The notes under the pieces were generated by a model. That model saw only the letters and a program-made list of their open reading frames with translations, made no database searches and was not told the DNA's origin. 64,000 nucleotides of DNA, taken from the NCBI RefSeq assembly GCF_965641715.1, contig NZ_OZ282453.1; one strand, written 5' to 3'. The stretch is from Escherichia coli. GTDB taxonomy: Bacteria > Pseudomonadota > Gammaproteobacteria > Enterobacterales > Enterobacteriaceae. Each line of letters begins with the position of its first letter. Position 1 is the first letter of the stretch. Below, one piece after another: positions 13,346-18,016 of this stretch. A program made the position numbers and the translations under genes.

Positions 13346-13850
13346 ACAGGCTCGTGAGGCTCTGGATGCCTGGATATGTCGACCAGGAATGACACAGGAG
13401 CAGGCGACGATATTAATCACTGAAGCATTCTGGGCTTTGAAAGAGCGCCCGAACATCGATGTTCAGCGTGTCACAGATGAAGGTGGCGCGGTTGATCAGC
13501 GAGCGCTTGGCGTTAATCGAGTGAAGATATTCGAACGCTGGAAGGCTATCGACACTAGGGATAAGCGTGAAAAGTTCACGGCGCTAGTGCCTGCAATTAT
13601 GGAGGCTATCCGGATTAATGATTTCAGGTTGTATCGTGAAATTAGTGACGGAAAAAGCATCACGTACATGATCGCCGGGTTAAACAAAGAATATGGCGAT
13701 GTGGTGGAGTCCGGACTGCTTTTTGCTGATCCTGCCGTAGTGGATCGTGAAACTGACGAACTTATAGAAAAAGCAATTGCTTTCAAACTTGCGTATCGAC
13801 AGCAATACCAACAAAAAGCTGGATGGAATTATGAGCCTTCTTTTTGCTGA
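13329..13850 (+). CDS. Hypothetical early-region protein (possibly YdaT/CII-like)
   Basis: 173-aa ORF downstream of cro-like gene; family not recognised with confidence. Confidence 0.45.
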   Translation: MKITPEQAREALDAWICRPGMTQEQATILITEAFWALKERPNIDVQRVTDEGGAVDQRALGVNRVKIFERWKAIDTRDKREKFTALVPAIMEAIRINDFRLYREISDGKSITYMIAGLNKEYGDVVESGLLFADPAVVDRETDELIEKAIAFKLAYRQQYQQKAGWNYEPSFC

Positions 13851-14796
13851 ACGCCCACTGGTTATAAACACACAGCTTGCGATGAAGATTGGCTTAAATG
13901 AAGCCATTGTGTTGCAGCAGTTGCATTACTGGTTGAGAGATACCAATTCCGGCATGGAATGTGATGGTGTTCGCTGGATTTACAACACAACGGAACAATG
14001 GCTGGAACAGTTCCCATTCTGGTCAGAGTCAACGTTAAAGCGCGCGTTTGCAAGTCTGAAAACGCTGGGGCTTTTGCGTTGTGAAAAGCTCAATAAATCA
14101 AAGCGCGATATGACCAATTTCTACACGATCAACTACGGGAGCGAGCTTTTAGATGGTGGCAAATTGAGCGAATCCATCGGTTTAAAATGCGCCGCTCCAT
14201 CAGGTCAAAATGACACGATGGAAGAGGTCAAAATGAAACGCTCCATTGGTTCAAAACGACCCAATGTCATCGGGTCAAAATGGCCTGATGATCTTACAGA
14301 GAATACAACAGAGATTACTACAGAGAATAAAAACACTTTTCGTCCGGAAGCTTCGCAACCGGACCCGCAGACCGCTGAACAGGATTTTTTAACCCGGAAC
14401 CCCGACGCGGTTGTGTTTAGTGCGAAAAAACGCCAGTGGGGTAGCAGGGAGGATTTGGCGTGTGCGCAGTGGATTTGGGGGCGGATCGTGAACCTTTACG
14501 AACAGGCTGCCAGCGACGATGGAGAGATCATGCGACCAAAAGAGCCTAACTGGACAGCCTGGGCCAATGACGTGCGCACAATGCGGATGCTGGATGGCAG
14601 AAGCCACAGACAAATTTGCGAAATGTTTGGTCGGGTACAGCGAGATCAATTCTGGGTAAAAAACATCATGAGCCCGTCAAAACTCCGCGAAAAATGGGAC
14701 GAACTGGTCATCCGCCTGGGACGTTCACCTGTACAGCGTTGTATGAATCATATTTCTGAACCGGATACAGAAATTCCGCCTGGTTTCAGAGGATAA
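13831..14796 (+). CDS. Phage replication protein with DnaT-like C-terminal domain
   Basis: ORF 13777..14796; start at ATG 13831 (MSLLFAERP); C-terminus ...NHISEPDTEIPPGFRG resembles the DnaT C-terminus (...VSEPDSQIPPGFRG); gene contains iterons. Confidence 0.65.
   Translation: MSLLFAERPLVINTQLAMKIGLNEAIVLQQLHYWLRDTNSGMECDGVRWIYNTTEQWLEQFPFWSESTLKRAFASLKTLGLLRCEKLNKSKRDMTNFYTINYGSELLDGGKLSESIGLKCAAPSGQNDTMEEVKMKRSIGSKRPNVIGSKWPDDLTENTTEITTENKNTFRPEASQPDPQTAEQDFLTRNPDAVVFSAKKRQWGSREDLACAQWIWGRIVNLYEQAASDDGEIMRPKEPNWTAWANDVRTMRMLDGRSHRQICEMFGRVQRDQFWVKNIMSPSKLREKWDELVIRLGRSPVQRCMNHISEPDTEIPPGFRG
14180..14340. repeat. Putative replication origin: iterons plus AT-rich tract inside the replication gene
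   Basis: ggtcaaaatg at 14203, 14226, 14273 and degenerate copies (ggtttaaaatg 14180, ggttcaaaacg 14248) at ~22-23 bp spacing, followed by AT-rich 14285..14340. Confidence 0.55.
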
Positions 14797-14836
14797 GTTT
14801 TGATTTCAGGTCATGAGGTAATTTTAAGGGGGACTT

Positions 14837-15238
14837 GTGGCAAAAGTTTTTACACAAGAAGAGCGGGAAAAAATTAAAGGGCAGGTGGTGGAACTCGTGC
14901 GCCAGAGCGGTCGTGAGACGTTACGGCAACTGGAAGCTAAAACAGGTGCGACTAGATATCTGATGAGCGTTCTTGCCAGAGAGCTGGTAGCCAGTGGCGA
15001 TGTATACAACTCCGGCTACGGGTTATTCCCGTCTGAACAGGCGCGTAAGGACTGGCAAAACGCCCGCAAAAAACTATCGAGGGCAAAGGTGAAGAAAACA
15101 GCTGTGGTTGATCCGGACCTTATCTGGTCGTTACCTGATGGAGAAATACGTCGCTACGACAGTCGCCTAAACATAATCTGTCGCGAGTGCCGGATGAGTG
15201 AAGTTATGCAGCGCATACTGGCATTTTATCAGGGATAA
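14837..15238 (+). CDS. Hypothetical protein (133 aa), replication-module position
   Basis: ORF with no Walker motif; not a DnaC-type loader. Confidence 0.45.
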   Translation: MAKVFTQEEREKIKGQVVELVRQSGRETLRQLEAKTGATRYLMSVLARELVASGDVYNSGYGLFPSEQARKDWQNARKKLSRAKVKKTAVVDPDLIWSLPDGEIRRYDSRLNIICRECRMSEVMQRILAFYQG

Positions 15239-15614
15239 TGTTAGGTATTTTAGACGTTACTAGATTAAAAAGCATTAGTTCAGGAGTGAATTGACATTCT
15301 CATTTTTCATGGCACAGGGTAGATCTGGCGTGGTTGTCCGCTTTGTGCCAAGAGCGGACGTTGGTATGCAAGAGCCCTCCAAAAGTTGATGGTTGGTTTG
15401 CAGGGGGGCTTAAAGAAACTGCACTTATCAAGTTGAAGTTCTGTATTCAGCGAAATCGTAGCACTCTGACGATAAGTAACTCCGGTACTCCGCTCTTCGA
15501 TGAAGAACCAGAGTAATCCCCCCGAAAAACCAGCGCATCAAAATTGGATCTTCAGCGGTAGCTTATCGGCTATCGGAAGTACAGGTGTGGATTCGTGGTG
15601 AATTGCTTTGATAA

Positions 15615-15650
15615 TAAACGATTAATACGGAAAAACGTATTAATCATTTA
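15615..15650 (-). terminator. Inverted repeat / putative terminator 3' of the 449-aa gene
   Basis: taaacgattaatacg-gaaaaa-cgtattaatcattta; 15-nt arms with one mismatch, ~23 nt past the stop of the minus-strand gene. Confidence 0.4.
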
Positions 15651-15672
15651 TTAGCTTTTAGTAAACCACAAT

Positions 15673-17022
15673 TTATTCCGTTTTACATATCATAGTAGTC
15701 GATTGGAGAATATAGTTTCTGGGAATGTACTCTTCAAAGTGTTCGTCCTTTTTAAATACATGAACTACATTTGGGAATAATTGATAGTCAACAGGGTGTA
15801 TAGCGTTTGGATTATGGTACATGTACATGGCTGTACACCATGGTTCTTGATAGTTAGGGTCACTTACATCGGCTGAAAATGGATGTGGGGCTGCATCCTG
15901 ATCAGTTTTAACACCACTGACGTACACTTTGAATCCACTCGCCTCTACACCTGCAAGAATTCCCATCCGGTTAAACTTAGGTATGGTTGCTTGAGTAGTG
16001 AGTAAAACGGCAGAAACATAATTATTTTGTTCTGAGCCAAAAAAGTTCGACTTGATACTTCTATTTTCATCTGTATGTCTTTCAATAGAAATGCCTGACT
16101 CAATATCAATCCCGTACAAATAGCTATGCAAGGCTTCGCTTGAGAAGGCCATGGACATTCTTTTTGAATAATCCTGCATTGCTATGACAAATGGTTTGTT
16201 CTTTGTATGGTTGAGTTCCCAGTAATGAACTTTCTCTGGCTCAGGGCAATGCCGGACTTTTTTTAATAAACTTCTTGCAAACTTAAAAGGCATGACATTT
16301 AGAACATGTTTTCTTAATTCATCCATCTGTTCATCGTTAATGACTTTTCTTTCAAGAGGGGCTTCTGCTTCAGCAATGCTTACAGCCTCTACAGCAATTT
16401 CCACTCCAAATTTAGATAGCAGAAAATCTGGTTGATTGTATTCTCTATTCATTTCAAAGTCGAGTTCATAAAATACAGCGTTCAAATATAATTCAAATAA
16501 CCTTGAATTAAATGCATCACTTTGAAAATCCCTTATAAATATTCCATCAGGATCTTTGAACCAGTATGCAAGTTCCTCAAGAACAATATATGCAGGGAAA
16601 TGAGGAGGGTCTTCGAGGAGCATTTTTATATAAACATTCCTTTTTTTCTCTGGGACTTTACTCAAGAATAATGAAAAAGGTTTGGTTGATTCATCGCCTT
16701 GCATGAATGTACCATTTTGGTGCTGCGCCAGCATCTTTGGTATGTCATCGTTCAAATTATTAAGCAAGACATCCATTGAATCAAATGAAGCCAAGACGTT
16801 TATTGCTCTGAATTTTTTATCTAAATCCCGACCTAAGACTATTGCGTTAAAATCTTTATCAATATTGCATATGATTATTGTGGATAACAATGTTATCCCA
16901 TTCCCCTCATATTTAAACCAGCGTATCTCCTCAGAAAATGTCTTAAGGTAAGGTGAGCGACCGTAAAAATAAATATCAAATTGTTCTTTGCTGATCTCAC
17001 TGAAGTGTAATCCTGCGTTCAT
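15673..17022 (-). CDS. Orphan 449-aa protein of unknown function (candidate accessory/defence gene)
   Basis: Single long ORF on the opposite strand to flanking phage genes, AAAGGA RBS, visibly AT-rich, flanked by ~430 and ~440 bp of non-coding DNA; no Walker A, no family recognised. Confidence 0.75.
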   Translation of the reverse strand: MNAGLHFSEISKEQFDIYFYGRSPYLKTFSEEIRWFKYEGNGITLLSTIIICNIDKDFNAIVLGRDLDKKFRAINVLASFDSMDVLLNNLNDDIPKMLAQHQNGTFMQGDESTKPFSLFLSKVPEKKRNVYIKMLLEDPPHFPAYIVLEELAYWFKDPDGIFIRDFQSDAFNSRLFELYLNAVFYELDFEMNREYNQPDFLLSKFGVEIAVEAVSIAEAEAPLERKVINDEQMDELRKHVLNVMPFKFARSLLKKVRHCPEPEKVHYWELNHTKNKPFVIAMQDYSKRMSMAFSSEALHSYLYGIDIESGISIERHTDENRSIKSNFFGSEQNNYVSAVLLTTQATIPKFNRMGILAGVEASGFKVYVSGVKTDQDAAPHPFSADVSDPNYQEPWCTAMYMYHNPNAIHPVDYQLFPNVVHVFKKDEHFEEYIPRNYILQSTTMICKTE

Positions 17023-17464
17023 ACCAATTCCTTTTCAATGAATAATTGGCCTTTAGGAGTGATTCCCTTTGTCTTTAATTCAGTTCTAACTAGTTCTTTA
17101 ATCCAATAGCCTAAGCTCATCATGCAGTTGGATCATAAGACAACGCCCTATAGTGCTCGTGATACTATAGGGCATCTGACCACACTGTTAACTGGAGTAA
17201 CGACTATGGCAGGAATACAGCATAACCAAACTCACCCCAAACTTACATAGCGCTTTCTGGCCGTGAGCATAACAAGGTCCACTCCTCGCTCAAAGCGGAC
17301 TAGAAGGTTAGCTTGTGTCGGACTTTGCGTATTAAATGACTAGTGGTTGAGCCCCATTTCCACAGAAAAAATCAGAGAAACTATACCCAATAGTTGTATT
17401 GAATCACTGACGAGACAGCCTCATATTCATCAGGACTGGTGTACGTCCAATACAGGAGGTTGTG

Positions 17465-17554
17465 GTGCTGGTTCTCAAATGTGCGCTGGCTATTACGGCT
17501 GTAATGGCGATTTATTGTCTTGCTATTGTTCTTATGGATCGCCTTTCTGACTGA
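17465..17554 (+). CDS. Candidate small hydrophobic peptide (29 aa), type-I-toxin-like
   Basis: AGGAGG (17454..17459) then GTG 17465; MLVLKCALAITAVMAIYCLAIVLMDRLSD = one predicted TM helix plus charged tail. Confidence 0.3.
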   Translation: MLVLKCALAITAVMAIYCLAIVLMDRLSD

Positions 17555-17765
17555 TTTCACATTGGCGAGGTAACGGTAGTTAAGTAGAATGGCTGCGGGT
17601 GCTTGAGGCTATCTGCCTCGGGCATGAACACCAACGGCAGATAGAGAAAAGCCCCAGTTAACATTACGCGTCCTGCAAGACGCTTAACATTAATCTGAGG
17701 CCAATTTCATGCTAGACACATGTAGGTTAGCCTCTTACGTGCCGAAAGGCAAGGAGAAGCAGGCT

Positions 17766-17921
17766 ATGAAGCAGCAAAAGGCGATGTTAATCGCCCTGAT
17801 CGTCATCTGTTTAACCGTCATAGTGACGGCACTGGTAACGAGGAAAGACCTCTGCGAGGTACGAATCCGAACCGGGCAGACGGAGGTCGCTGTCTTCACA
17901 GCTTACGAACCTGAGGAGTAA
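17766..17921 (+). CDS. hokD: Hok-family type I toxin (HokD/RelF-like)
   Basis: MKQQKAMLIALIVICLTVIVTALVTRKDLCEVRIRTGQTEVAVFTAYEPEE; AAGGAG RBS; ORF track shows in-frame upstream extension from 17709 (mok-like). Confidence 0.9.
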   Translation: MKQQKAMLIALIVICLTVIVTALVTRKDLCEVRIRTGQTEVAVFTAYEPEE

Positions 17922-17990
17922 GAGACCCGGCGAGGGAGAAATCCCTCGCCACCTCTGATGTGGCAGGCATCCTCAACGCACCCGCACTTA

Positions 17991-18016
17991 ACCCGCTTCG
18001 GCGGGTTTTTGTTTTT
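17991..18016 (+). terminator. Rho-independent terminator after hokD
   Basis: acccgc-ttcg-gcgggt hairpin followed by tttttgttttt. Confidence 0.7.

Follow-up and report, generated by a model that had tools for sequence, protein, structure and literature searches.

The functional selection of Vassallo et al. (2022, Nat Microbiol; PMC9519451) yielded 21 systems, among them PD-T7-1. This system comes from E. coli ECOR46 (contig QOYF01000088, protein RCQ85672.1), consists of a single gene with a 1350-nt open reading frame (ORF) and is labelled "Nuclease". In the ECOR46 clone, the ORF was kept under its native promoter, with flanks of 302 bp upstream and 45 bp downstream; the clone reduces plaquing by T7 and has a stronger effect on T-even phages, with adsorption unchanged. 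The best HHpred match published for PD-T7-1 is Hjc (80% probability, E = 0.24, residues 177–219). In work on strain NILS69 published in 2025, PD-T7-1 gave protection against a Teseptimavirus and made T7 plaques smaller (PMC12409345). Here we analyse a 64,000-nucleotide stretch of E. coli DNA (assembly GCF_965641715.1, contig NZ_OZ282453.1; hereafter the window), in which a prophage carries, at 15673–17022, a gene that is almost certainly a copy of PD-T7-1 and a defence gene.

Two sets of observations on prophage cargo bear on this locus. Inverted repeats around the fun(Z) gene of phage P2 were reported by Nilsson, Karlsson and Haggard-Ljungquist in 2004, according to a passage in PMC8987985. 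Hotspots for defence cargo were described by Rousset et al. in 2022, whose account does not mention repeats or hairpins and leaves the exchange mechanism open. We estimate a probability of about 80% for the overall reading that a copy of PD-T7-1 is carried in the window as lysogenic-conversion cargo by a Qin-like lambdoid prophage beside rspB; the encoded protein would be a three-module enzyme.

Identity of the gene

The encoded protein matches the PADLOC model of PD-T7-1 over its full length (PDLC04073; E = 4.2e–157, 521.5 bits, residues 8–447 to profile positions 2–448 of 452). The PADLOC model of PD-T7-5 (PDLC04110) is matched by residues 117–427 (E = 1.2e–40), and phrog_8571, a phage family of unknown function, by residues 111–449 (E = 2e–120). 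The ORF in the window has 1350 nt, a length equal to that of the ECOR46 gene. The two genes further share 449 codons, an E. coli prophage context, a single-gene layout with its own promoter, and a weak PD-(D/E)XK/Hjc signal at the same residues. Nothing detectable sets them apart in this comparison, which was made by profile and length. The equal length and the near-clonal E. coli population suggest that the proteins may also be identical at the residue level. Among 5426 complete E. coli genomes, 200 (3.7%) carry PD-T7-1, always on the chromosome and in single copy. DNA identity is 99% or higher for 192 of these copies; the lowest value among the matches listed is 98.6%.

A preliminary description of this DNA, made from the sequence alone, had called the gene an orphan and a candidate new defence factor. 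The gene is neither orphan nor new: PD-T7-1 was experimentally validated in 2022, re-tested in 2025, is listed in PADLOC and belongs to a family of at least 1076 clusters. The proposal of a prophage-borne anti-phage factor, by contrast, is borne out by the full-length PD-T7-1 match and the published defence phenotype. The main value of the present analysis lies in this correction, as what RefSeq calls a "hypothetical protein" (its name in all E. coli matches listed) and UniProt a "glycosaminoglycan attachment site" protein is an experimentally validated defence gene. The UniProt/GenBank label 'Glycosaminoglycan attachment site/protein' is attached to members of the family from many phyla (e.g. 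A0A8H0NKV2, ARM67891.1). It probably stems from a short sequence-pattern match, and would thereby hide a validated defence gene.

The gene and its immediate surroundings comprise the following features:

15673..17022, (–) strand, PD-T7-1 gene, 449 amino acids, ATG start; matches PADLOC PDLC04073 and phrog_8571
17029..17033, (–) strand, ribosome-binding site AAGGA, 6 nt before the ATG
17164..17191, (–) strand, promoter-like site: –35 TTAACA, 16-nt spacer, –10 TATAGT; 10 of 12 consensus positions
15612..15653, (–) strand, AU-rich hairpin 20 nt past the stop codon, probably the terminator of the gene
15531..15611, (+) strand, remnant (27 codons) of a helix-turn-helix (HTH)/AlpA-type regulator gene, C-terminus ...AYRLSEVQVWIRGELL and stop; RefSeq: partial HTH or AlpA-family regulator

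The ORF, the good ribosome-binding site, the 3' hairpin and the low GC content noted in the preliminary description are all real. The hairpin is formed by two 18-nt arms with 94% complementarity (dG –19.1 kcal/mol, z = –5.0); none of 200 shuffled sequences folded equally well. GC content is 0.365 in the ORF (0.336 at third codon positions) versus 0.489 in the window, with 0.469 in the left flank and 0.50 in the right one. About 440 bp of AT-rich non-coding DNA had also been described upstream of the gene. With a GC content of 0.428 (17023–17464), this stretch is only mildly AT-rich; only 17023–17300 (278 bp) belongs to the unit of the gene, and the part from 17301 on is the conserved hokD/sok leader. 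The promoter-like site, putative as a consensus match, falls within the 302 bp of upstream DNA that sufficed for defence in the Vassallo clone. The –10 element of this site overlaps a perfect palindrome (arms of 9 nt), CCCTATAGT-N9-ACTATAGGG at 17146–17172, which could be an operator for some regulator.

A repeat-bounded unit

The gene lies in a discrete 1966-bp unit with a GC content of 0.38 (measured over 15370–17290):

15336..17301, no strand assigned, mobile unit, 1966 bp: left repeat, HTH remnant, hairpin, PD-T7-1 gene, promoter region, right repeat
15336..15359, no strand assigned, left terminal repeat GTCCGCTTTGTGCCAAGAGCGGAC, a 24-bp near-palindrome and inverted copy of the right repeat
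17277..17300, no strand assigned, right terminal repeat GTCCACTCCTCGCTCAAAGCGGAC, a 24-bp near-palindrome and inverted copy of the left repeat
17597..17921, (+) strand, hok/sok leader and hokD, conserved right flank outside the unit (Rfam sok RF01794 at 17597–17771; hokD at 17769–17921)

The terminal repeats belong to a 34-nt inverted repeat (right arm 17267–17300, 82% complementary). After reverse-complementing one of them, the left- and right-end consensus sequences agree at 21 of 24 positions; read inward, the consensus of the 24-bp repeat is GTCCGCTTTGWGCSARGAGCGGAC. Rfam contains no family for the 24-bp repeats, and a literature search on the repeat sequence itself found nothing relevant. 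The boundaries of the unit are also visible in genomes with other contents: five prophages with different cargo lose homology to the window at 15359–15362 and regain it at 17274–17286, the inner edges of the repeats, and in many E. coli genomes the match to the window extends no further than 17300. The repeat motif is enriched in the window, with three sites (six matches on both strands) versus 0.29 matches expected by chance. The third and more divergent copy, GTCAGCTCTGAGCCAGTGGCGGAC at 22893–22916, is located downstream of Q and the tRNA genes, with a tolA-fragment pseudogene on one side and the gene of a TolA C-terminal-domain protein on the other, in another zone of extra prophage genes.

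PD-T7-1 is the sole intact ORF of the unit and is oriented against the phage early-right operon. We looked for an antitoxin gene or RNA beside it and found no second intact ORF in the unit and no Rfam match within 15336–17300. This speaks against a toxin-antitoxin module like relBE of K-12 Qin. The HTH/AlpA remnant accompanies PD-T7-1 inside the unit in every context and looks like the scar of an earlier host element.

The same unit is found in unrelated phages. The protein is 98–99.6% identical in the lambdoid phage mEp460_ev081, in P2-like Yersinia phages and in a Morganella phage. Homology at the DNA level spans exactly 15336–17301 both in the P2-like Yersinia phage vB_YpM_46 (98.9% nt identity) and in Morganella phage IME1369_01 (96.1% nt identity). 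In the Yersinia phage, the unit is inserted between the tail-fibre genes (gene G) and the sheath gene FI, i.e. at the P2 fun(Z) locus, and in the Morganella phage between umuDC and a tail-fibre gene; in both it stands alone, with no partner gene. Ten IMG/VR contigs (L020–L029 in our numbering) carry the unit with the left end at 15336–15340 and the right end at 17294–17301, except that the right end of one divergent metagenomic contig, L028, lies at 17275. The unit ends thus recur in the lambdoid slot, in a lambdoid arrangement with tandem cassettes, in the P2-like fun locus and in the Morganella phage. The suggestion that the gene was acquired separately from the backbone, made earlier from base composition, is supported.

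In phage P2 itself, fun(Z) (15675–17261) is bracketed by GTCCACTCTGTGCCAAAAGCGGAC (15335–15358) and TTCCGCTTCTCGCTCAAAGGAAAC (17432–17455), and the flank that comes next is shared with the Yersinia phage. The P2 repeats (836–859 and 2933–2956 of our locus L152) differ from the consensus at 3 of 24 and 5 of 24 positions. Since the same repeats bracket fun(Z) in P2, the PD-T7-1 unit is, by sequence comparison, a cassette of the P2 fun(Z) type. The two loci have the 24-bp inverted repeats in common, and the unit of the P2-like Yersinia phage occupies exactly the fun(Z) locus; they differ in that the unit in the window is located in the nin-type region of a lambdoid prophage and has PD-T7-1, not fun, as its cargo. 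The exact unit ends matching the P2 fun(Z) repeats link two sets of prophage "hotspots" that have so far been treated separately.

The cargo slot between the DUF977 gene and hokD

The prophage is Qin-like and integrated beside rspB, with the gene order int - xis - exo - ydfD - dicB ... repressor/cro - YdaT - replication gene - DUF977 - [PD-T7-1] - hokD - rem - DUF968 - rusA - Q. The window and K-12 Qin differ over 13609–17751, and homology resumes from 17752. It had been stated in the preliminary description that K-12 Qin carries relB-relE immediately upstream of hokD, and this we could confirm: the two genes are found there in place of the hok leader. The further claim that PD-T7-1 takes the position of relBE holds only in part. 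Both lie in the same interval before hokD, but the repeat-bounded slot of K-12 Qin holds ydfV'/flxA, and relBE is situated between this slot and hokD. The repeat pair of K-12 MG1655 Qin (L002, 7982–8005 and 8973–8996) brackets part of ydfV together with flxA; flxA is therefore the cargo of the K-12 slot.

We surveyed the slot in a spread sample of E. coli genomes. Alternatives to PD-T7-1 include a RelA/SpoT protein (PADLOC PDC-S33, E = 5e–119), a DUF4209 protein (PDC-S39, E = 8e–103), a SIR2 protein, an alpha/beta hydrolase, QueH with a methyltransferase remnant, KilA-N and several hypothetical proteins. Since the interval between DUF977 and hokD carries many alternatives across the sampled E. 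coli, the view that it is a variable cargo slot is correct, and the slot is rich in defence genes. Like the hotspots of Rousset et al. and hotspot 2 of Vassallo et al. (both 2022), it combines a fixed phage position with interchangeable AT-rich defence cargo, and several alternatives are common to the hotspots and the slot (retrons, AbiH, parts of Thoeris and other systems). The hotspots of Rousset et al. adjoin cos, whereas the slot described here is part of the lambdoid backbone.

Protein family and predicted structure

An exhaustive search returned at least 1076 family clusters at 50% identity (E ≤ 1e–3; 193 clusters at E ≤ 1e–30), spread across bacterial phyla. We aligned 112 diverse relatives with about 30% identity to the query and built an AlphaFold2 model on this alignment. 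Eleven residues are invariant: R174, E177, P198, D199, E212, K255, F328, R352, E393, W395 and N404. The model scores 94.5 in the predicted local distance difference test and has a predicted template modelling (TM) score of 0.94; its TM-score to an independent AFDB model of the identical E. coli protein is 0.98. It consists of three modules (amino acids 8–98, 171–303 and 311–449):

16729..17001, (–) strand, N-terminal alpha/beta domain, amino acids 8–98; least conserved module
16114..16512, (–) strand, PD-(D/E)xK-like nuclease core, amino acids 171–303; invariant R174, E177, P198-D199, E212, K255
15676..16092, (–) strand, C-terminal beta-rich domain, amino acids 311–449; F328, R352, E393, W395, H403-N404-P405

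About a third of the top 150 family representatives lack the N-terminal domain or have another in its place. The domain falls outside the PD-T7-5 and phrog_8571 models, which begin at residues 117 and 111, respectively, and differs in the cassette-borne relative L118. Because this module is the least conserved and is missing or swapped in many relatives, it is probably a sensor or regulatory module, and the possibility of swapping it points to it as the likely sensor. PD-T7-5 and phrog_8571 are homologous to the protein in the window over the nuclease core and the C-terminal domain and do without the N-terminal domain of about 110 amino acids; the shorter layout, or another extension, is seen in about one third of the top 150 representatives.

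The central module contains the conserved acidic residues of the PD-(D/E)xK superfamily: E177, P198-D199 and E212 are present in 112 of 112 sequences. In the model, E177 is on the first helix, P198-D199 precedes the second strand and E212 is on the third strand, which is the motif order of the superfamily. The core fold and this order (helix E, PD aspartate, beta-strand E) are shared with archaeal Hjc, the XisH family (2okf), CdiA-CT (4g6v) and VRR-NUC. Residues 196–239 also give a weak match to the PHROG Holliday-junction-resolvase family. The only hint of function seen in the preliminary description, a degenerate PD-(D/E)xK-like segment (FELYLN...QPDFLL...VEIAVEAVS), proved well placed: it is the stretch of the published HHpred Hjc/PD-(D/E)XK signal (residues 171–219) and holds four invariant residues.

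The C-terminal domain is the most conserved module, with 16 positions at ≥90%, and has no informative structural neighbour. It may bind substrate or form a second active site. Together, conservation and the confident model give a testable picture, with E177, D199, E212 and K255 as candidate residues in the core and R352, E393, W395 and H403/N404 in the C-terminal domain. This residue set, the domain model and the link to the repeat-bounded unit go beyond what is found in the literature examined.

Proposed mechanism and alternative explanations

We suggest that the central module would act as an atypical PD-(D/E)xK nuclease in which E177, D199 and E212 bind metal, and the catalytic lysine would be K255 from the following helix, not a residue at the E-x-K position. 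A role in sensing infection or in keeping the enzyme inactive would fall to the variable N-terminal alpha/beta domain, and substrate binding to the conserved C-terminal domain. Upon infection, the nuclease would then cleave the nucleic acid of the phage, or that of phage and host alike. That defence proceeds through nuclease activity of the PD-(D/E)xK-like core is, in our estimate, slightly favoured over the contrary.

Several points weigh against a nuclease. The lysine of the (D/E)-x-K motif is missing: position 214 is V in 59, T in 47 and K in 0 of the 112 sequences. The invariant K255 lies on the helix that follows the E212 strand and may be placed in the active site as a relocated catalytic lysine. 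Because position 214 is never K while K255 is invariant on the next helix, we call the core atypical; it would be at best a variant PD-(D/E)xK nuclease with a probably relocated lysine. Neither the protein nor any of the 112 relatives matches Pfam, the protein has no match in NCBIfam, and neither it nor the 112-sequence profile matches PDB sequences, which fits the remark in the preliminary description that no familiar motif could be recognised. Foldseek finds no significant match in PDB, and in AFDB50 only family members with the 'Glycosaminoglycan attachment site'-type label. Finally, a literature search found no biochemistry of PD-T7-1 and no active-site mutant.

Defence might also be exerted by an abortive-infection toxin, that is, an infection-activated nuclease that does not discriminate and breaks down nucleic acid of both host and phage (perhaps tRNA or another RNA), so that the cell dies before progeny are released. 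In the study of Vassallo et al. (PMC9519451), however, 7 of the 11 putative DNase systems gave direct immunity; moreover, with neither antitoxin nor partner gene in the unit, such a toxin would need self-inhibition. We take this for a possible but rather unlikely course of events. The stronger protection by PD-T7-1 against T-even phages than against T7 would fit a restriction of type IV-like character, in which the C-terminal domain reads modified phage DNA (the glucosyl-hydroxymethylcytosine of T-even phages) and directs the nuclease to it. The densest set of conserved residues is in that domain, and one review places PD-T7-1 among restriction-like systems. No recognisable modified-base reader domain fused to the nuclease core was found, and we rate this explanation as decidedly unlikely.

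The missing canonical lysine, the status of the C-terminal domain as the most conserved module and the failure of every sequence profile to recognise a nuclease family could all be accommodated if the PD-(D/E)xK-like core were an inactive scaffold and defence relied on another activity of the C-terminal domain, e.g. binding or sequestering a phage factor. Yet three acidic residues, the preceding proline and a lysine are invariant in 112 sequences at about 30% identity, and this counts against a dead core because selection on an active site would produce such a pattern; we regard an inactive core as very improbable. It is still harder to maintain that the gene is a moron with some other role and no part in defence in this prophage. 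Such a role could be read from the UniProt/GenBank 'Glycosaminoglycan attachment site' label on family members, but the label presumably reflects a short sequence-pattern match, anti-phage activity of the family was observed in two independent studies, and the neighbouring cargos of the same slot are defence systems. The chance of this seems close to negligible.

Census of repeat-bounded cassettes

An exact scan of viral contigs with the 15-mer TCGCTCAAAGCGGAC returned at least 120 loci. The full repeat is present in about 80 among the matches listed, usually with a left-type copy 0.8–5.8 kb away. In this small census of loci compared, 72 left-right repeat pairs enclose 35 distinct cargos, mostly with a GC content of 0.32–0.47. 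Repeats around exchangeable cargo were seen in the window, in L003–L008, L016, L017 and L019–L150, and in P2 (L152). About 40 of the pairs are in the lambdoid DUF977–hokD slot, three are at the P2 FI flank, and the rest are distributed over at least 10 other contexts. Among 32 cargo types tested, 18 contain a protein with a strong PADLOC match and 14 do not. The matched cargos include PD-T7-1 (two forms), ThsB, and ThsA/SIR2 with a CARF-ADA-like protein; retron reverse transcriptase (RT)-Toprim type I-C and retron RT type IV with a 2TM protein; AbiH, Tmn, NsnA / PD-T4-2_A, and Hp1 with Hp2; an Aga-type restriction endonuclease domain and a WYL protein; and the candidate families PDC-S06, PDC-S07, PDC-S33, PDC-S39 and PDC-M38A. 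The tabulation of cargo between the replication genes and hokD in other prophages, as proposed in the preliminary description, yielded many alternatives and a defence-rich set, and the notion of a variable slot that keeps anti-phage systems is upheld by these numbers.

As the repeat pairs enclose many different defence systems in lambdoid and other phages, they provide a sequence handle for finding further cargo. Repeat-bounded low-GC cargo with no strong PADLOC match was seen at L006:1150-1923, L007:935-1690, L008:870-1679, L021:5898-6842, L041:7088-9119, L043:6326-8410, L078:394-1353, L096:11280-12362, L097:8143-10182, L103:3602-6608, L119:6752-7339 and L141:3030-3689. By their position, the cargo genes without a PADLOC match are candidates for undescribed defence genes.

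The arrangement that seems to be most common in E. coli is a tandem array within the slot, and reads repeat - 314-aa hypothetical protein - repeat, an 18-nt spacer, repeat - PD-T7-1 - half repeat - 200-aa tyrosine recombinase - 326-aa hypothetical protein - repeat - hokD. The 200-aa tyrosine recombinase (L019:6941-7543, E. coli WCHEC035148) has little beyond the catalytic domain, which is XerA/XerC/FimB-like (E = 1e–14), and directly abuts the truncated right repeat of the PD-T7-1 unit; it is also found in L020–L023, L048, L053, L060, L104 and L114. We considered it as a dedicated recombinase of the cassettes. This is weakened by its presence in only the L019-type and two or three other arrangements among about 120 repeat-containing loci. 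Neither do the repeats behave as classical transposon ends, as no target-site duplication was found, nor is the unit an invertible segment, given that all copies are collinear with their flanks and no inverted copies were found. No empty slot with a single hybrid repeat was found among 42 lambdoid slots.

It is possible that the cassettes move by short-homology recombination at the repeats, or through a site-specific enzyme acting in trans. A bolder idea, which we put forward tentatively and consider unlikely on present evidence, is that the repeat marks a cassette-exchange system for defence genes across phage families (lambdoid, P2-like and at least 10 other enterobacterial phage contexts), with dedicated site-specific or hairpin-dependent recombination rather than homologous exchange of the flanks. 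If this were true, searches for repeat pairs would be a direct route to new defence genes. The repeats around P2 fun(Z) were already reported in 2004; their breadth, defence content and mechanism could be new.

Observations at the hokD flank

The hokD leader in the window gives a full Rfam sok match (115 bits). The hokD gene of strain P15-385 is marked by RefSeq as a pseudogene with an internal stop. Just downstream of hokD in the window, at 17930–18011 on the (+) strand, there is a weak match to Rfam isrK, an Hfq-binding small RNA (25.7 bits, E = 0.009; below the gathering score of 50).

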